Shown: one piece after another, positions 22,408 to 30,379 of the stretch | How positions within the stretch are numbered: the stretch's first letter is position 1 | How the letters are laid out: every line of letters starts with the position of its first letter | DNA from: an uncultured Vicinamibacteraceae bacterium | Lineage (GTDB): Bacteria; Acidobacteriota; Vicinamibacteria; Vicinamibacterales; UBA8438 | DNA length: 37,171 nucleotides | NCBI GenBank assembly: GCA_964591245.1 | Contig: CAZPZZ010000004.1 | Location: 1,079 to 38,249, forward strand | Direction: 5' to 3' | Position numbers and translations under genes: made by a program | The notes under the pieces: generated by a model | What the model saw: the letters and a program-made list of their open reading frames with translations, nothing else | Databases searched by the model: none | Told to the model about the DNA's origin: nothing

Positions 22408-22717
22408 CCTATTGAGCTGTCCCAGCGACGCAGGCCGTCAGGACGGCGCCGGCCCATTGCATACGGACGCCACGGACGACGATCCGTACACGGGTGGGAA
22501 CGCAACCACAGGTCTGTGCACCGAAAATGCCGGACCGGGTCCCACCGACATCAGACGAATGTCTCGGCCAGAAAGTCGGAAGAGATGTAAAGTCGTGAAG
22601 CTCCCGATGGTAGAGTGAAGTTTCCTCTACACACGCCGAGGCCTCTTCGGGCCTGCATCGATGGGGAACAAGCCCCAACTGCGGAGACGTTCGATGACGA
22701 TTGGGACATGCGACAGA

Positions 22718-24787
22718 ATGAGCCGGCTGGTCCTCCTCTTGGGAGCGATGACTTCCACAGCATCGGCCCAAACCGGTGGTCTGTATACGGTCGGCCAAGC
22801 GGACACTGGAGCACGCATATATTCACGCTACTGCGCCACCTGTCACATGGCCGATTTGAGCGGCGCGTTTGAGGCTCCCCAACTGGCTGGCGCCAGCTTT
22901 CAGGCCATCTGGAGCACGCGACCGACGAACGAGCTTCGAACCCTGATCCAAAATTCGATGCCCCCAGGCCAAGGCGGTGCGCTGGCCGACGACGAATACG
23001 ACGGGCTCGTCGCATACATACTTCAAGCCAACGGAGTTCCGCTCAGACCTGGGGATCAAGCAACACAGGCCTCGACGTCGCCTGCAGCACCGCCCCGCGA
23101 TGCGGAGCCGCCCACCGGAAGCACTGCGGACACAACTGTCACCTACCAGGCTCTCGACACGTTCCAGCCGGTGACAGACGCGGCCCTGCGCAACCCGGAT
23201 CCCGGTGATTGGCTGAACTATCGGCGTACGGACAATGCCTGGGGTTACAGCCCACTCGCTGAGATTACTCGCGAGAACGTGCATCAGTTGACCCTGGCCT
23301 GGGTGTGGGCAATGCCAGCCGGCAGTAACCAGCCTACGCCGCTGGTCTATGACGGCACCCTCTACCTTGCCAATCCGGGCAACCTCATCCAAGCGCTGGA
23401 TGCCTCGACTGGCACACTGCTCTGGGAGTATCGCCGGCCGCTACCAGACGGGCTGCAGACGGGATTGATTCGAAATCTCGCCATTTACGAAGGCCTGATT
23501 TACCTGGCGTCCCGCGACGCGTTCCTTGTAGCCCTCGATGCACGCACCGGAGCTGTCGTATGGGAAACTCAGATCGCCGACTATCGCCAGGGCTATTCCA
23601 ACTCCGCCGGGCCAATCGTGGCCGCAGGCAAAGTCATCAACGCGATCAACGGATGTGGTCGTTTTCAACCGGATAGCTGCTTCATCACAGCACACGACCC
23701 CTATACCGGCGAAGAACTGTGGCGAACGTTGACCATCGCAGGTCCCGGAAGTGTCGGTGGGGATACGTGGGGTGATCTATCACTGACGCTCCGTGGCGGA
23801 GGCGATTCATGGATCGCGGGAAGTTTCGATCCAGACCTCGGTCTGATCTATTGGCCGGTGGCCCAGGCCAAGCCGTGGGTCCCCGCCAGTCGTGGGCTCA
23901 CCGTACATGACGCCGCCTTGTATACGAATGCCACACTGGCCATCGACCCGGACGACGGGTCGATTCGCTGGTACTTCCAGCACGTACCTGGCGAGGCACT
24001 CGATCTCGATGAAGCCTTTGAAAAAGTTCTCATTGACGACGCACAAGGCCAGAAGGCGCTATTCACCATCGGCAAAAGCGGCGTACTCTGGAAGCTCGAC
24101 CGGGAGACCGGAGCATTTCTTGGGCACGTAGAAACGGTCTACCAAAACGTCTTCGATCGGATCGATCCAGTAACCGGTGCGGTCACCTATCGTCAGGACA
24201 TCGCGGAAGCGGGCATCGGCGACTGGGTATCCGTTTGCCCAAGCACGGCGGGTGGCCACAACTGGCAAGCCATGGCGTACAGCCCAGAGGCTCGGACACT
24301 CATCATCCCACTCAGCCAGAGCTGCCTGGAAATCGCCGGGCGTGAGGTGCCACTCATCCCTGGGTCAGGCGGCACCCAGGCCGATCGCAAGTGGTTCGAA
24401 ATGCCAGGAACAGGGGGAAACCTTGGCAAACTGGCCGCCTATGACATAGACACCCTCGAGGAAAAATGGAGTGTCGAGCAACGAGCGGCGCTGCTGACCG
24501 CTGTCCTCACGACAGCGGGTGAACTCGCGTTCGCCGGTGATGTGGATCGCTATTTCCGCGCGCTCGACACACATACCGGTGAGGTACTGTGGGAGACACG
24601 GCTTGGCACGTCCGCCCAGGGATTCCCGGTGAGTTTTCTCGCCGACGGCGAGCAATTCATCGCGGTCACGGCCGGCGTGGGCGGTGGGAGCCCCCGTCGT
24701 GTACCGATCCTGTTGAGCCCAGAGATTCACCACCCTGGCGTCGGCAACGCCTTATACGTCTTCAAGCTCGCTAACGCGCGGCGCTAG
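22718..24787 (+). CDS. Quinohemoprotein-type PQQ dehydrogenase with N-terminal cytochrome c
   Basis: Signal peptide; CATCH (22832-22846) plus axial NSMPP; Pro/Thr linker; [39 protein letters not shown]. Start could be 22691 or 22661. Confidence 0.9.
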
Positions 24788-24865: not shown

Positions 24866-25843
24866 CTACTGGCCGCCTTCGCGGTGCGCATTGTAGCGTT
24901 CTGCCCGCTCAACCATCACGGCAGTCTCGGTCAAATCAAGCCGTCGCTGGGCGTCGAGGGGCCTCGGGCCCGCATCACTGCCGCCAATCCGACCATCGCG
25001 CGCCAACGATGTCATCGCGGCGTCCATGGCTCCGAGAGCAATCGCCCCCATGGCACCAACGAAGAGCACGCTCACCCCGTTATCGCGAGCGTCAGCCACC
25101 GATGAAGCACTGGTCAAGATCGGCCGGCCCGCCATCTCGACAGCCCGCCGGCACTGGTCTAGCGGAATACCAGGAATGAAGATCAGGTCGCCGCCTTCCT
25201 CCGCGTACAGTGCTACCCGCTCCATTGCTTCCTCAAGCTCACCGCCGTCGGCAACAACATCGCTCCGCACAAGAAGGACAAGGTCCTGGTCCCGCCGGGC
25301 ATCGACCGCCGCGTGCACCTTGTCCACCATCGCCGCGCGACTGAGAATCTTCCCCTCGTCGTAACCCGCGAGGTGTTTGGCGCCATAGAGGTCTTCGAAC
25401 ATGATGCACGCTGCGCCCGCCTTCTCCATCCGCTGGATCGTGCGGTACACGTTGAGTGGATTCCCGCCACCGTCATCCGAGTCGGCAATAATCGGCAGGT
25501 CAACGGCGTCCGACGTCCGGTTACAGAATTCGACAAGGTCATCCACCGTGATCATGCCGAAATCGCCCGTTCCATATTTGCTGAGCGAGAGCGCACTCCC
25601 ACCGGTCATCACCATCTCGAACCCGTGCATGGCTGCCAACTTGGCAGTCGCGACATCGCCGCAATTAATGCACCGGCTGGGTTCGCCACGGGCCAAAAAC
25701 TCCCGTAAGCGTGCCGCTGGAGTCTGCCCCGTCGATTGTGCAACCACAGGCGCTCCACCCGCCCAACGCTCCCCGATGAAACCGCCGGTCGCGAACCCGG
25801 CACCTTGCAGAAAACGCCGACGGCTTGGTCTGTCGTGCTGCAT
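24866..25843 (-). CDS. Isocitrate lyase/PEP mutase superfamily enzyme with twin-arginine signal
   Basis: TGGS, DFG, PIIADSDDGGG, AGAACIMFED, LVRSD, GGDLIFIPG; SRRRFLQG; start trimmed to ATG 25843 after GGAG. Confidence 0.85.
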   Translation of the reverse strand: MQHDRPSRRRFLQGAGFATGGFIGERWAGGAPVVAQSTGQTPAARLREFLARGEPSRCINCGDVATAKLAAMHGFEMVMTGGSALSLSKYGTGDFGMITVDDLVEFCNRTSDAVDLPIIADSDDGGGNPLNVYRTIQRMEKAGAACIMFEDLYGAKHLAGYDEGKILSRAAMVDKVHAAVDARRDQDLVLLVRSDVVADGGELEEAMERVALYAEEGGDLIFIPGIPLDQCRRAVEMAGRPILTSASSVADARDNGVSVLFVGAMGAIALGAMDAAMTSLARDGRIGGSDAGPRPLDAQRRLDLTETAVMVERAERYNAHREGGQ

Positions 25844-25887
25844 CGTGTCATCTCCCAAAGAACAAAAGTGCCGTTTCAAGTCCAAGT

Positions 25888-25893
25888 ATTTTA
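25888..25893 (-). promoter_or_regulatory. Putative -10 (TAAAAT) of the ICL/PEPM-family gene
   Basis: Minus-strand CCGTAAAAT 45 nt upstream of the start. Confidence 0.4.
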
Positions 25894-26013
25894 CGGCACC
25901 CGCCCCGACGAACAGACGACGGAGGCGGCAGCGGAGAGAACCAAACCACGCCGTTAGAGAATGGTCAGTCCCACTTCCTCTCGGCGGCGCAGCTTGATCG
26001 GAGAGACGAGCCG

Positions 26014-26019
26014 TATAAT
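26014..26019 (+). promoter_or_regulatory. Putative -10 (TATAAT) of the copper monooxygenase operon
   Basis: CCGTATAAT, back-to-back with the 25888 element; GAGGAGG RBS before ATG 26141. Confidence 0.45.
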
Positions 26020-26140
26020 GATCTGGAGTTCGTTCGTCGTTGGCAACTATCCTCGTCGCTGAGACCGGAGTGCTGTCAACCTCGCGCACAGGCGCCCCGA
26101 GGGGGGAATCTCGTGCGCCGATCCTGAGGAGGTACTAAGT

Positions 26141-27490
26141 ATGAGGCCGACCGGTAGCATCCGAGGCATGTTGGCTCTGACTTTGGTCACGATCGTCGCA
26201 CTGCTCGCGCCGTCAAACGCGGCATTGGCCCAAAGCGACGTGACTCCAACGTATTCAAAAGACGTCGCACCGATTTTTCGCGATAAGTGCGAGGCCTGTC
26301 ACCGCCCTGGTTACATCGCGCCCATGTCGCTGCAAACCTACGCAGAGTCACGGCCCTGGGCCCGCTCGATCAAGAACCGGGTCGAAACACGGCAAATGCC
26401 ACCTTGGCACATCGACAAGTTCGTGGGCATTCAGGAATTCGACAACGACCGCTCCCTGAGCGAGTCGGAAATCGAGACCATCTCGCGGTGGGTCGACGGC
26501 GGCGCTCCTCGGGGCAACCCTGCGGACATGCCTCCTCCCGCTGTCTTTGCCGATGATGACGTATGGAACTTTGCGGATCGCTTTGGCGGACCACCTGACC
26601 TCGTCGTCCATTCCACCCCATACACCATGCCGGCCCTCGCACAAGACCACTGGTGGAAACCGGAGGTTCCGACGGGCCTGAACGAAGACCGCTGGATTCG
26701 GGCCATCGAGATCAGACCGTCAACCGTAGCCGGACGTCGCATCACCCACCATGCGTTGGCGCGGTTGCAGCAGGAAGAAGATGAAGGCGCTCTCGGCGCG
26801 GCGTCAGACATCGGCCCAGGCTTGCTCATGGAGTGGGCCGTCGGTAAGCAGGGCGAGATCATGCGCGAGAACAGCGGAAAGTTGATCAAGAAAGACTCTT
26901 CCATCGTGTGGGATGTCCATTACTCGTCTGCCGGCGAGGAGATTACCGACACCGTTGAGCTCGGCCTCTACTTCTACCCCAAGGAACAGCCACCGAAATA
27001 TCGTCAGGTCTTATCGGCGTGGAGCTCTCTCGAAGGCGGCAGCGCAAACCTATCGATTACGCCAAACTCGATCACAGCAACCGAACGGTTCCACGTACTC
27101 CGCCAGAATGGCCGGCTTGAGAATTTCCAGCCACATATGCATCTGCGAGGCAAAGGCATGCAGATGACAGCAGTGTTTCCAGATGGCACGAGCCAAGTCT
27201 TGAGCCGTGTGAGTAACTTTAACTTCAACTGGCACAACAACTACGTCTATGCCGACGACGCGGCGCCGCTACTGCCCAAAGGAACGGTGGTCGCGGTGAA
27301 GTCCTGGTACGACAACACATCCGCCAACCGCGCTAACCCTGATCCCAACCAATGGGTGGGTTACGGAGACCGGACCGTGGATGAAATGGGACATGCATGG
27401 GTCAATGTCACCTACATGGATGACACCGACTTCGCCGCTGCAGTGGCGGAACGTGAGGCAAAGGCCGAGACGACCGAAGGTGACGAATAG
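26141..27490 (+). CDS. Secreted cytochrome c fused to a copper type II (PHM/DBH-like) monooxygenase
   Basis: Signal peptide; CEACH (aa50-54) + QMPPW; THH (203-204), VHY (260), PHMHLRGK (332/334), FNFNWH, DEM (416). Confidence 0.8.
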   Translation: MRPTGSIRGMLALTLVTIVALLAPSNAALAQSDVTPTYSKDVAPIFRDKCEACHRPGYIAPMSLQTYAESRPWARSIKNRVETRQMPPWHIDKFVGIQEFDNDRSLSESEIETISRWVDGGAPRGNPADMPPPAVFADDDVWNFADRFGGPPDLVVHSTPYTMPALAQDHWWKPEVPTGLNEDRWIRAIEIRPSTVAGRRITHHALARLQQEEDEGALGAASDIGPGLLMEWAVGKQGEIMRENSGKLIKKDSSIVWDVHYSSAGEEITDTVELGLYFYPKEQPPKYRQVLSAWSSLEGGSANLSITPNSITATERFHVLRQNGRLENFQPHMHLRGKGMQMTAVFPDGTSQVLSRVSNFNFNWHNNYVYADDAAPLLPKGTVVAVKSWYDNTSANRANPDPNQWVGYGDRTVDEMGHAWVNVTYMDDTDFAAAVAEREAKAETTEGDE

Positions 27491-27524
27491 CCATCACCCA
27501 GGATCCGATCATTGCCGTTACATA

Positions 27525-27558
27525 GCCTGAAACCGGGGCGCTTACCCCGGTTTCGGGT
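27525..27558 (+). other. Intercistronic stem-loop
   Basis: GCCTGAAACCGGGG-cgctta-CCCCGGTTTCGGGT, 14 bp including G-U pairs; no U tract. Confidence 0.65.
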
Positions 27559-27599
27559 CGTGGCCGATCGTGTGCTGTAGGGAAGAAGGAGACTGTTTT

Positions 27600-28433
27600 A
27601 TGTGGGTCTTTCGTGTGGCAGCATGGATTGTGGTGCTCTTGGTGGGCATTGCCGTTCTACCAGCCACGGCGCAAGTGCCAAAGACGCTCCAGGCATTTGG
27701 CGCGCCTGTATATCCAGCGTTTGAAGGCTGGTATCAGAATGCCGACGGGTCGGCCACGATTCTGATCGGCTATTTCAATTCCAATCAGACCCAAACCGTC
27801 GACTTACCCATCGGCGAATTGAACCGATTTTCCCCCGGCCCTGAAGATCGCGGCCAACCGACACGCTTTGAACCGGGTCGGTCATGGGGCGTGTTTAGTG
27901 TTGAGGTTCCGGGTGATTTCGATGGTCAGCTGAGTTGGACGCTTGTCGCCAACGAAAATCCAATTAACATTCCCTTCCACCTCGAAGCGCCGTACTTCGT
28001 GGAACCCTTCCGCGACGCATCGAACAACAACGAGCCGCCGACCATCAAGTTTGCTCCGGACGGCACCTCCTTCACCGGCCCGCCCGCAGGAATTGCCCAT
28101 ACCGCCACTGCGACCATTGGCACGCCAGTGGACGTAGGTATCTGGCTGACCGATGTAGTACCCGATACGAATGTACGCGAGAATCCTCGTCGGCGACGCC
28201 CCGCCATGAGCCTACGATGGTCAACGCTTCGTGGGCCTGGCCAGGTAGAGTTCGACGAATCAGTACAGGACTTTGAGGATGCATCGCCCCAGACGACCAT
28301 GACCACTGTTACATTCGACGTAGCAGGCGAATATTGGCTTCGGGCCGAGGCCCTGGACTCAACGGGTGAGGGAGGCAGCGGGTTCCAGTGCTGTTGGACG
28401 TCAGCAATCGTCAAGGTGGACGTCACCCCCTAG
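27600..28433 (+). CDS. Uncharacterised secreted protein with C-terminal Ig/PKD-like domain and CCW motif
   Basis: AAGGAG RBS then ATG 27600; signal peptide; VYPAFEGWYQNADGS, GQPTRFEPGR, WSTLRGPGQVEF, GEYWLRAEA, FQCCWT. Confidence 0.8.
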   Translation: MWVFRVAAWIVVLLVGIAVLPATAQVPKTLQAFGAPVYPAFEGWYQNADGSATILIGYFNSNQTQTVDLPIGELNRFSPGPEDRGQPTRFEPGRSWGVFSVEVPGDFDGQLSWTLVANENPINIPFHLEAPYFVEPFRDASNNNEPPTIKFAPDGTSFTGPPAGIAHTATATIGTPVDVGIWLTDVVPDTNVRENPRRRRPAMSLRWSTLRGPGQVEFDESVQDFEDASPQTTMTTVTFDVAGEYWLRAEALDSTGEGGSGFQCCWTSAIVKVDVTP

Positions 28434-28457
28434 ACTGAACTCTTTCCCTCACGATTC

Positions 28458-28505
28458 AGGAACAGGGGCACGGATCCTCACGGTCCAGTGCCCCTTTCCT
28501 CTTTA
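28458..28505 (+). terminator. Probable intrinsic terminator
   Basis: AGGGGCAC-GGATC-ctcac-GGTCC-a-GTGCCCCT followed by TTCCTCTTT. Confidence 0.65.
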
Positions 28506-28602
28506 TACCAGCCGCTCGGGCGACAGCCGCAACCGCTCAGGTGATACGAGCTTCCACAGTGTTACGGTGCCGCACTACGATTTCCGCGAAATCGTCAAGA
28601 GG

Positions 28603-28630
28603 GGAATATTTTCGGTCGAATCTGAGTCTA
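28603..28630 (+). promoter_or_regulatory. Putative autoregulated ECF promoter (GGAATA-N17-GTCTA)
   Basis: Resembles the RpoE-type GGAAC/GTC consensus; 75 nt upstream of the sigma gene. Confidence 0.55.
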
Positions 28631-28705
28631 CGAAGATAACGGCATTCGGAGCCCGTCGCCTCAAGCACGCGACACGTCCGCCGGACCGACATTGTCGTCC
28701 AGACC

Positions 28706-29353
28706 ATGGGCACTTATACTGCCGTCATCGTCGTGCCGCACGTAGATCAGGTGGACACTGGATCCCTCCGCCGCCAGCTGGATCCGGACCGAACGCTTGT
28801 CGAAGAAGCGCAAGCAGGAAGTCCCGATGCATTTGAAACGCTGGTGAGGCTCTATCAAGTCCGGATCGTAAACTACGTATCGGCTATCGTTAAAGATCTC
28901 GGCGAGGCGGAAGATGTCGCTCAAGAAACGTTCGTGCGCGCCTACAGGTCGCTCAAGCGTTTTCGGTACGAAAGTTCGTTCAAAACATGGCTCTACACCA
29001 TCGCGACGAATACGGCCCGCACCGCCCTTGAACGCCGCGGACGACGGGAACGAGTCCATGATCAGAGCCTCGACGACGCCGATCATCCGGTGAGTTCCAA
29101 CCATGTTCCGGCTGAAGGCCCAGACGCCGAGACGACACTCGTGACACGAGACGCTATAGACCGCGCATTGGCAACCCTCTCAGAGGAACTCCGGATTGCT
29201 GTGGTCTTACGTGATGTCGATGGCCTCGATTACAAGGAAATCGCCGCAGTCACTGGTGTCCCGATCGGAACCGTGGAATCTCGAATTTTTCGTGCAAGGC
29301 AACGGCTCCGCCCCTTGCTGAGCTCGGTGCATGTCGAGGCACGAAGACGTTGA
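28706..29353 (+). CDS. ECF RNA polymerase sigma factor (RpoE/SigW-like)
   Basis: AEDVAQETFVRAY, SSFKTWLYTIATN, LRDVDGLDYKEIA, GTVESRIFRAR. True start may be downstream. Confidence 0.93.
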   Translation: MGTYTAVIVVPHVDQVDTGSLRRQLDPDRTLVEEAQAGSPDAFETLVRLYQVRIVNYVSAIVKDLGEAEDVAQETFVRAYRSLKRFRYESSFKTWLYTIATNTARTALERRGRRERVHDQSLDDADHPVSSNHVPAEGPDAETTLVTRDAIDRALATLSEELRIAVVLRDVDGLDYKEIAAVTGVPIGTVESRIFRARQRLRPLLSSVHVEARRR

Positions 29354-29838
29354 AAGAAACCGTCATGCGCTGTGAAGATTATGAACGTTTGATAGTCCGC
29401 CACCCGGGGGCGCGGATCTCATCGGACGAGGAGCAACACCTGCAGCGCCATCTGAACGAATGCGGGGAGTGTCGAGAAGCGTTGGCGGCACAGCGACAGG
29501 TATCAGACATACTAGCTAGACGTTCGACGGCAATGGTCTCCCCTGACTTTGCGAACCGCGTCATGGCAGATCTCCCCGTCAATCCAGCATGGCTAGAACT
29601 CCTGAATTGGCAACGGTGGACATTCCGACTGGCCCCAGTGGCCGCGACACTCGTGCTGGTAGCAGTGCTCGGATTTGGCGAGACAGAAGCCACCCGGCCA
29701 CTGGAATTTTCCGATCTGGTCGTCGACTGGGTCGCGGATGACGGAACCGGTCCAGAAACGCCAGGGCTTGACCTGCTGTGGCAAGAAACGGACGTCGTCG
29801 AGACCTGGCTCGAAGTGGCGTTGACCACAAGTCCATGA
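29350..29838 (+). CDS. Zinc-binding membrane anti-sigma factor (ZAS/zf-HC2)
   Basis: HLNECGEC (HxxxCxxC), one TM helix; overlaps the sigma stop codon. Confidence 0.85.
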   Translation: MKETVMRCEDYERLIVRHPGARISSDEEQHLQRHLNECGECREALAAQRQVSDILARRSTAMVSPDFANRVMADLPVNPAWLELLNWQRWTFRLAPVAATLVLVAVLGFGETEATRPLEFSDLVVDWVADDGTGPETPGLDLLWQETDVVETWLEVALTTSP

Positions 29839-29878
29839 CCTCCGCGCGGGAACAAGGACATCTAGAGCAGAAGGGCAC

Positions 29879-30379
29879 GTGATGAACGGCACGATGATGC
29901 GCCTCTGGGCCGGCCTTTTCGTGCTCGTGGTTTTCGTGGGCGGACTCGCCGCTGGATTCGTTGTTCGTCCCATGCTCTCAAGCGCCTTCTCCTATAGAAG
30001 TCCCCGGCCTGCCTTCGAGCCCGGGCCACGATTTGCTCGTGGGCCACGAGGTGCTCGTCGGCCACGAGTCACAGAGCGCTTACTCGACCGGATCGCGACG
30101 CAGATCGCCCTGACCCCAGATCAGCGTCAACAACTCGAAGCAGTATTTGAAAACCGCCGGCAACGGTTCCGAAGACTCGACGAGGACATTCGTCGGCAAT
30201 TCGAGACCGAGCAAGAGCAGATGACAATGGATATCGCAACAATCTTGACCGCCGAGCAAATGGAAGTCTTCGAGAACGAAATCATCCAGATGCGGCGTGA
30301 TCGTCGCCGCCCTGAACGATTCCGCGGTCCCCCGCAACGACCGGAAGAATCACGTAGGCCTCCACCGTGGTTCCGCTGA
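29879..30379 (+). CDS. Spy/CpxP/ZraP-like periplasmic LTxxQ protein
   Basis: N-terminal TM; LTPDQ and LTAEQ motifs flanking a charged helix; Arg/Pro-rich tails. Confidence 0.75.
   Translation: MMNGTMMRLWAGLFVLVVFVGGLAAGFVVRPMLSSAFSYRSPRPAFEPGPRFARGPRGARRPRVTERLLDRIATQIALTPDQRQQLEAVFENRRQRFRRLDEDIRRQFETEQEQMTMDIATILTAEQMEVFENEIIQMRRDRRRPERFRGPPQRPEESRRPPPWFR

Follow-up and report, generated by a model that had tools for sequence, protein, structure and literature searches.

We analysed a stretch of DNA of 37,171 nucleotides (nt) from an uncultured Vicinamibacteraceae bacterium, referred to below as the window, and describe here two adjacent genes on its plus strand, which we call alpha and beta. 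Alpha encodes a protein of 449 amino acids (aa) in which a c-type cytochrome domain precedes a core resembling that of the two-copper enzymes PHM and DBH, and beta encodes a putatively secreted protein that is predicted to bind alpha. An earlier note on this DNA had described alpha as a self-contained fusion of heme c with a PHM/DBH-like two-copper monooxygenase; the open reading frame (ORF) list and a script confirm its ORF at 26141..27490, place the heme motif exactly at 26288-26302, and find every ligand residue that it named, i.e. the methionine of MPPW, H203, H204, H260, H332, H334 and M416. The features of alpha are the following.

26128..26132, plus strand: GGAGG, ribosome-binding site of alpha, 8 nt 5' of the ATG at 26141.
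26141..27490, plus strand: alpha gene (P0001), 449-aa cytochrome c/PHM-DBH-like copper protein by its homologues and fold; the sole ORF listed there.
26141..26230, plus strand: putative signal peptide, about aa 1-30, ending ...AALA/QS, read from the sequence by eye.
26243..26515, plus strand: predicted mono-heme c-type cytochrome domain, about aa 35-125; weak Pfam and profile matches, helical in the model.
26288..26302, plus strand: CxxCH heme-attachment motif, CEACH (C50/C53/H54), in 50 of 50 aligned sequences and 18 of 18 paralogues.
26396..26398, plus strand: M86 in QMPPW (the MPPW motif), invariant, candidate distal heme ligand.
26588..26995, plus strand: N-terminal jelly roll, about aa 150-285, with the CuH-type site; aligns to PHM and DBH.
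26747..26752, plus strand: H203-H204, CuH-type ligands, invariant, aligned to the HH of PHM/DBH.
26918..26920, plus strand: H260, third CuH-type ligand, invariant; the profile sets ‘qvHY’ on PHM ‘LQVHY’.
26996..27421, plus strand: C-terminal jelly roll, about aa 286-427, with the CuM-type site; structural match, and a sub-threshold Cu2_monoox_C match at aa 328-419.
27134..27142, plus strand: H332-M-H334, CuM-type HxH, aligned to the HTH of PHM/DBH.
27338..27382, plus strand: W405 loop, aa 400-414, at the heart of the alpha-beta contact predicted from the complex model and a paralogue comparison.
27386..27388, plus strand: M416, candidate CuM methionine ligand within the range covered by the structural alignment; kept in at least 90% of aligned homologues and in 17 of 18 paralogues.

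A script check of the translation finds only two cysteines in the entire alpha protein, C50 and C53. As both sit in CxxCH, the catalytic part is cysteine-free, in agreement with the earlier note, and the disulfides of the eukaryotic enzymes are missing. The putative export signal, judged by eye from the sequence, looks to be of the Sec type, and residues 1-30 have low confidence in the structural model. M10 is a possible in-frame alternative start, and the Atlas record of the protein begins at residue 10.

Alpha has many relatives, nearly all of them without a name. Its scored relatives fill at least 8000 clusters at 90% identity, almost all unnamed or ‘hypothetical’ and none with a precomputed Pfam domain; at 50% identity, 14,960 clusters match alpha with E ≤ 1e-3 and 1,902 with E ≤ 1e-30. 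Across an alignment of 50 alpha homologues (A1; 29-82% identity to the query, mean column identity 28%), C50, C53, H54, M86, H203, H204, H260 and H332 occur in every sequence, and H334 and M416 in at least 90% of them; because these ten candidate ligands are near-invariant despite so low a mean identity, their conservation lies beyond chance. When the A1 profile is searched against the sequences in the PDB, human DBH (4zel) is the best match (E 3.2e-9) and 13 distinct PHM/PAM sequences are found at E 7.2e-8 to 1.2e-5 (rat PHM at about 7e-8). The profile alignments set the HH, H and HxH of the alpha family onto the matching histidines of PHM and DBH, and the CuH pattern of these enzymes, a histidine pair plus a third histidine in the N-terminal domain, is matched at sequence level by H203/H204/H260. 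The heme region gives weak profile matches to the alpha subunit of hydrazine synthase (5c2v_A, E 4e-4) and to PccH (4rlr_A, E 0.003). A single-sequence phmmer search of alpha against the PDB sequences returned matches at chance level only (best E 0.35); therefore, a profile is required to reach PHM and DBH.

Comparison of structures leads to the same two enzymes. The AlphaFold2 model of alpha, with A1 as input, has a mean predicted local distance difference test score (pLDDT) of 88.2 and a predicted template modelling score (pTM) of 0.85. In a Foldseek search against the PDB the model retrieves DBH first (1.9e-12) and then 27 PHM entries (8.8e-12), after which unrelated jelly rolls appear from 1e-5. 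VIA-align superposes the model on DBH with Z 21.5 and a root-mean-square deviation (rmsd) of 3.1 Å over 266 residues, and on PHM with Z 20.1 and 3.0 Å over 244 residues, residues 150-430 of the model lying on 60-327/328 of PHM; the next family, PNGase F (1pnf), follows at Z 8.5. The rat PHM ligand numbering quoted in the earlier note agrees with the PDB titles of the H107A, H108A, H172A and M314I mutants. Taken together, the profile E-values, the structural Z-scores and the aligned, conserved ligand columns support the assignment of alpha as a putative c-type cytochrome fused to a PHM/DBH-type two-copper core, and the central claim of the earlier note, that of heme c joined to such a core, is thus borne out at the level of sequence and model.

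The domain libraries register little of this architecture. No Cu2_monooxygen (PF01082) match was found on alpha in the Pfam scan, further weak Pfam matches in its heme region are to Haem_bd and PccH, and NCBIfam gives nothing useful (best E 0.22). Among 39 scanned relatives, 8 pass the Pfam cut-off for Cu2_monoox_C (PF03712), none passes that for Cu2_monooxygen (30 bits; best 25.2 bits), and P0129 (37.1), P0141 (34.1) and P0183 (28.2) lie above that for Cytochrome_CBB3. Pfam models cover alpha's branch of the PHM/DBH family poorly, and the current Pfam and NCBIfam models leave most of the alpha family without annotation. Distant relatives (P0129, P0141, P0194, P0214, P0223, P0237, P0256 and others) fuse the cytochrome/copper core to extra domains, among them N-terminal AhpC/TSA-redoxin, C-terminal TPR, CBM48-like, alpha/beta hydrolase and EF-hand domains, and in some of them the whole cytochrome/copper unit is present twice.

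Beta lies 3' of alpha on the same strand, with these features.

27530..27553, plus strand: perfect 9-bp GC-rich hairpin, AAACCGGGG / CCCCGGTTT, with a 6-nt loop and no T tail, in the alpha-beta spacer.
27586..27591, plus strand: AAGGAG, ribosome-binding site of beta, 8 nt 5' of the ATG at 27600.
27600..28433, plus strand: beta gene, 277-aa putatively secreted protein with two predicted Ig-like domains, assigned from adjacency and model; the listed ORF begins at GTG 27570.
28386..28400, plus strand: QCCWT motif with the vicinal cysteine pair C264, C265 (numbering of the 277-aa form), from a comparison of 30 orthologues.

We take ATG 27600 as the best start of beta because AAGGAG precedes it. 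The spacer hairpin may be an element of RNA stability or stoichiometry; one RNA-library contig reads through it, and a terminator scan of 25800-28800 called none. Beta has 891 database relatives with no name beyond ‘hypothetical protein’ and no Pfam domain; its own best Pfam match has E 0.15, NCBIfam gives nothing, and its Atlas label, ‘putative PKD domain’, is an automatic name. The beta model (pLDDT 83.8) shows two tandem Ig-like sandwiches, for which Foldseek and VIA-align return generic Ig, PKD and chaperone-like matches at Z 8-10, mostly over residues 140-277, with no functional lead.

Three lines of evidence tie beta to alpha. First, a beta homologue adjoins alpha in each of the 80 related loci, which come from Vicinamibacterales and Acidobacteriota and of which 2 are cut short. 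Second, a complex model of mature alpha with mature beta scores ipSAE 0.79, 0.80 and 0.80 in three runs, compared with 0.00 for the best of 3 controls; the mark applied is reached by 116 of 157 solved complexes and by 2 of 215 mismatched pairs, a benchmark that holds only roughly here because custom alignments went into the model. The runs share at least 67% of contacts, with partner pLDDT of at least 82, and the lowest-error contacts join alpha 401-413, the loop before M416, to the N-terminal domain of beta (38-41, 59 and 122-132); a beta loop at aa 260-262 also contacts alpha. Third, a comparison that does not draw on the model concerns W405, which lies in the middle of the predicted interface: it occurs in 12 of 12 alpha paralogues with a neighbouring beta and in 0 of 6 without one. 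Beta is therefore a predicted partner subunit of alpha, and the description of alpha as self-contained has to be given up, since a second putatively secreted protein adjoins it in all 80 loci and is predicted to bind it.

Toward the C-terminus of beta, all 30 orthologues compared have Q263, C264, C265, W266 and T267. The motif recurs in only 4 of the 12 beta paralogues of this genome, the four closest, the other 8 having no cysteine in the mature protein; it is therefore a speciality of the orthologue group to which the beta of the window belongs. From its sequence, QCCWT could be a redox-active vicinal disulfide or a modification site.

The pair has been duplicated many times within the genome of the window (G000; 4.5 Mb, 301 contigs, 94% complete), which holds 18 full-length alpha ORFs and 3 fragments at contig ends, together with 4 long proteins that match alpha in the heme region only. 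Each of the 12 beta ORFs lies beside an alpha (9 downstream, 2 upstream, 1 divergent), and a maximum-likelihood tree separates the 12 partnered alphas from the rest by a branch supported at 99/99; the alpha-beta pair has therefore been duplicated as a unit. All ten ligand residues are kept in 17 of the 18 alpha paralogues, which are 28-77% identical to the window copy. The remaining one, on contig C67 (12999-14219, minus strand, locus L120), has lost 5 of 6 copper ligands, with R, L, E, G and L replacing H203, H260, H332, H334 and M416, and keeps CxxCH and M86; judged by its sequence, it is probably a copper-free derivative. In PHM, R240 binds the substrate carboxylate, and N316 and Y318 complete the carboxylate clamp. 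The position aligned to R240, Q330 in alpha, is occupied by Q, M, R, E, S, W, F or L, depending on the paralogue, and the positions +2 and +4 after the methionine, matched to N316 and Y318 by offset only, vary as well. Three Cytochrom_C_asm matches in this genome exceed the cut-off, one of them in a frame of 841 aa together with a ResB-like stretch; cytochrome c assembly genes are thus at hand, so attachment of heme to alpha is feasible.

The expansion extends to other Acidobacteriota. Alpha matches with E ≤ 1e-20 occur in 14 of 61 genomes, a tally that includes G000 and the unpublished genome G024 (single match), and the richest genomes have at least 28 (the count scored for G044), 21, 17, 11 and 6 matches. 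Among the matches listed, 25 of 36 beta matches in three other genomes lie within 600 nt of an alpha. A same-family genome of 3.9 Mb has 31 beta matches, 20 of them within that distance of a listed alpha. A genome without a beta homologue (G050) carries a tandem array of at least 6 alpha-type genes on contig C5 at about 261-275 kb, which is a different mode of expansion of the alpha family.

We propose, with a rough probability of 0.6, that alpha is a subunit of a periplasmic two-subunit copper oxygenase comprising heme c, two PHM/DBH-type copper sites and the beta partner. Alpha would be exported via its putative Sec-type signal peptide and would carry one covalent heme at C50-x-x-C53-H54, for which M86 is probably the sixth ligand; in the double jelly-roll core, H203/H204/H260 would form the electron-transfer copper site (CuH type) and H332/H334/M416 the oxygen-binding copper site (CuM type). 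The fused cytochrome may take single electrons from periplasmic carriers and pass them to CuH, so that the heme would replace the ascorbate used by the eukaryotic enzymes; a requirement of alpha for ascorbate would be unlikely. CuM would then bind O2 and hydroxylate a C-H bond of the substrate, and the N-terminal domain of beta, bound to the loop just before M416, would probably shape or gate substrate access. Large paralogue expansion and variable pocket positions suggest a distinct substrate for each pair, and each alpha-beta pair may handle its own organic compound from seawater. The earlier proposal of a bacterial periplasmic C-H hydroxylase thus stands in its first part, export, as read by eye from the sequence, and its second part, C-H hydroxylation, is kept here as a conditional step.

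Several observations weigh against this proposal. Heme, copper and oxygenase chemistry are all deduced from conserved residues and fold. On alpha alone, Cytochrome_CBB3 reaches E 0.005 (17.5 bits vs a cut-off of 27) and Cu2_monoox_C E 0.16 (11.8 bits vs 23), both below threshold, and the equivalence of M416 with M314 of PHM is a putative one, drawn from position and conservation. The partner is not universal: 6 of the 18 alpha paralogues in G000 have no neighbouring beta, and two other Acidobacteriota genomes, which have 17 and 11 alpha matches, gave no beta match; beta is therefore a feature of one lineage and no general requirement of the family. The neighbours of the 18 alpha paralogues are heterogeneous and indicate no pathway. 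RNA libraries speak for the pair, if weakly: both alpha and beta are covered by contigs from 4 metatranscriptome runs of 4 studies, and one 637-nt RNA-library contig spans 27227-27863, across the alpha-beta spacer; these are weak evidence for expression and co-transcription, since RNA-library contigs can include DNA and a two-gene contig is no proof of a single transcript, and the parts of the stretch that such contigs leave uncovered carry no meaning.

The alternative that survives best keeps the scaffold and the cofactors and changes the reaction: alpha and beta would catalyse a periplasmic redox reaction of another sort, for instance the reduction of O2, superoxide or peroxide, the oxidation of a metal ion or a sulfur compound, or thiol-linked chemistry. 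An N-terminal AhpC/TSA or Redoxin domain stands ahead of the cytochrome in 13 of the 39 scanned relatives, a figure that is no frequency because many of the 39 were picked for N-terminal extensions; such fusions could indicate thiol or peroxide chemistry and add to the points just listed, but alpha of the window has no redoxin domain. Likewise, the vicinal cysteine pair, invariant in the closest beta orthologues and situated beside the loop that contacts alpha, would suit thiol chemistry, whereas 8 of 12 beta paralogues lack cysteine in the mature protein. No substrate-related gene is conserved nearby, either in the 80 loci or among the paralogue neighbours, which also leaves room for a reaction of this kind. 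Against it stands the conservation across the family of the full PHM/DBH ligand set including the CuM-type methionine, a set that in characterised enzymes serves O2 activation for hydroxylation. We consider this alternative unlikely, though with a real share of the probability.

A second alternative turns beta from subunit into substrate: alpha would oxidise QCCWT, by tryptophan hydroxylation or a Cys-Trp cross-link, to yield a tryptophylquinone-type cofactor. The known quinone cofactors derived from tryptophan require a dedicated oxidising partner, and a system of this kind would fit the invariance of QCCWT in all 30 orthologues, the adjacency of the genes in all 80 loci, and the contact made with alpha by aa 260-262, directly before the motif, in the complex model. 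However, all 12 beta paralogues are paired with an alpha and only 4 of them contain the motif; the lowest-error contacts lie at the N-terminal domain of beta, away from the motif, and look like a stable subunit interface; and beta, with its generic Ig/PKD-like matches, shows no resemblance to a known quinoprotein. We regard this alternative as improbable.

Still less probable is a true bacterial counterpart of PHM, which would hydroxylate the C-terminal glycine of secreted peptides in the first step of amidation, a role that the earlier note had offered as one suggestion. The fold and both copper sites match PHM, but the carboxylate clamp does not: because Q330 replaces R240 and varies among paralogues, peptide amidation is unlikely, as is peptidyl-glycine as a substrate of alpha, and the two positions after the methionine vary too. 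Moreover, no PAL-type lyase or peptide precursor gene was found among the neighbours scanned, and 18 paralogues per genome are ill-suited to a single peptide-processing role. Finally, that the copper-site residues are a structural relic in a non-catalytic cytochrome or binding protein has hardly any probability: the C67 paralogue keeps its heme motif without 5 of 6 copper ligands, from which it follows that a copper-free form can persist, and the fold clan contains non-metal proteins such as PNGase F, but the ten ligand residues are retained both across the A1 homologues, with their 28% mean column identity, and in 17 of 18 paralogues at identities down to 28%.

The genes around the pair are conserved only among near relatives. 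In the 80 related loci, the neighbours seen in the window recur in a minority, the pyrroloquinoline quinone (PQQ) dehydrogenase in 18, the extracytoplasmic function (ECF) sigma factor in 13 and the PEP-mutase-like gene in 10, a pattern of synteny limited to close relatives. When the ORFs of the same loci were crudely clustered, a procedure in which ORF calling was noisy and antisense frames were included, no third conserved gene emerged, no further family occurring in more than 14 loci. Near-identical DNA, covering the stretch or part of it, occurs in seawater metagenomes from 20 runs of 13 studies, one of which runs may be the source sample.

Some of these neighbours merit description. The PQQ-dependent dehydrogenase (22661-24787, plus strand) has an N-terminal cytochrome c domain at aa 46-120, scores below the NCBIfam cut-off for the methanol/ethanol family (362.9 vs 480), and could supply electrons to nearby periplasmic enzymes or take them up. 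At 24866-26089 (minus strand) lies a member of the PEP-mutase/isocitrate-lyase superfamily (Pfam PEP_mutase, E 1e-31), with sub-cut-off matches to methylisocitrate lyase. About 80 aa into this ORF, ‘MQHDRPSRRRFLQGAGFATGG’ reads like a twin-arginine signal for export and may mark where the protein truly starts; export would be unexpected in a family that is normally cytoplasmic. Directly 3' of beta (28706-30379, plus strand) stand the ECF sigma factor, a 162-aa putative anti-sigma factor and an arginine-rich protein of 166 aa without a Pfam match, a module that is syntenic in 12-13 of the 80 related loci. The segment 14688-22353 (minus strand) carries an aerotolerance-type (Bat) operon encoding a MoxR AAA ATPase, a DUF58 protein, two VWA/BatA-like proteins, a TPR protein and BatD.

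Around the other paralogues, a Pfam scan of 93 neighbours found scattered ankyrin, PSD/DUF1552, PQQ-like, GSDH, DUF5916 and TRAP genes. Three of the 18 alpha paralogues (L105, L107 and L112) have large ankyrin-repeat proteins encoded within a few kb, in two cases directly beside them; Planctomycete-type PSD/DUF1592 and DUF1552 pairs lie near three (L105, L106 and L117), L105 being common to both sets; and genes for glucose/sorbosone dehydrogenases abut two alpha paralogues, the stop and start codons overlapping in one of the two.

PHM and DBH are textbook enzymes of hormone and neurotransmitter synthesis in animals and central models of O2 activation by two distant coppers. The catalytic core described here is known; the new elements are a cytochrome c donor fused to it, a predicted subunit dedicated to it, and the sheer size that the family reaches in bacteria. 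No characterised bacterial enzyme that joins cytochrome c to a PHM-type core was found in the literature, where subscription journals fall outside the coverage and a publication could be missed, and profile and Foldseek searches found no bacterial PHM/DBH-type structure in the PDB; this agrees with the earlier note, which knew of no biochemical characterisation of the fusion. A PHM/DBH core is predicted in a bacterial family of 14,960 clusters with a fused electron donor, to which one lineage adds a second subunit.

We advance a wider view only tentatively, and regard it as a good deal less probable than the two-subunit oxygenase itself. PHM/DBH-type monooxygenases may not be essentially eukaryotic: a far larger, overlooked bacterial branch may exist in which a fused cytochrome c replaces ascorbate and in which, in some marine Acidobacteriota, an Ig-fold partner has been co-duplicated to give 12 to more than 20 pairs per genome, perhaps as a periplasmic oxygenase toolkit with a P450-like role for diverse, possibly refractory organic compounds of seawater. 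If the proposed chemistry is true, alpha would make the PHM mechanism accessible in a soluble protein free of disulfides and independent of ascorbate, where the supply of electrons could be driven and timed through the heme; it would also represent a new class of periplasmic C-H oxygenases in marine carbon cycling, and its paralogue families could be mined for biocatalysts.

Among known systems, PHM (the rat PAM core; 1phm, 1opm and 1sdw) is alike in its double jelly-roll core, which alpha matches at Z 19-20 and about 3.0 Å over about 244 residues, and in having a conserved methionine beyond HxH, the spacing from H334 to M416 being 82 residues in alpha vs 70 for the equivalent residues in PHM. 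Alpha differs from PHM in that it is only 13-15% identical, lacks the disulfides, is bacterial and putatively periplasmic, carries a c-type cytochrome domain at its N-terminus, has a predicted partner, beta, as a separate subunit, and has a glutamine at the position aligned to R240. Human DBH (4zel) is the top match by profile, Foldseek and VIA-align, and in DBH, as in alpha, a further domain precedes the catalytic core. In DBH this N-terminal domain is a DOMON beta-sandwich, whereas in alpha it is predicted to be a helical heme c domain with CxxCH; moreover, the dimerisation domain of DBH is missing from alpha, and nothing in alpha points to a phenylethylamine, the type of substrate used by DBH.

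Two systems with unrelated catalytic folds resemble the electron path proposed for alpha. In pairs of cellobiose dehydrogenase and lytic polysaccharide monooxygenase (LPMO), the cytochrome domain of the dehydrogenase feeds the monooxygenase single electrons outside the cytoplasm, replacing a small-molecule reductant, and a heme domain that supplies a copper oxygenase is the logic that alpha may share. There, however, the heme is of type b and the copper is a mononuclear histidine-brace site on a separate protein, whereas in alpha a heme of type c would be fused in cis to a two-copper PHM-type core. Periplasmic PQQ quinohemoprotein dehydrogenases, to which the product of 22661-24787 in the window belongs, are likewise redox enzymes with a built-in mono-heme cytochrome c as an electron port; their heme removes electrons, whereas that of alpha is proposed to supply them.

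PNGase F shares the double jelly-roll fold with alpha, at the Z of 8.5 given above, but is a far weaker match than PHM or DBH and is a hydrolase without copper ligands. A paper on this fold from 2022 assigns PNGase F and PHM to clan CL0612, within which it treats the former as bacterial and the latter as eukaryotic (PMC8812541). The alpha family contradicts this division, placing a PHM/DBH-type core in bacteria.

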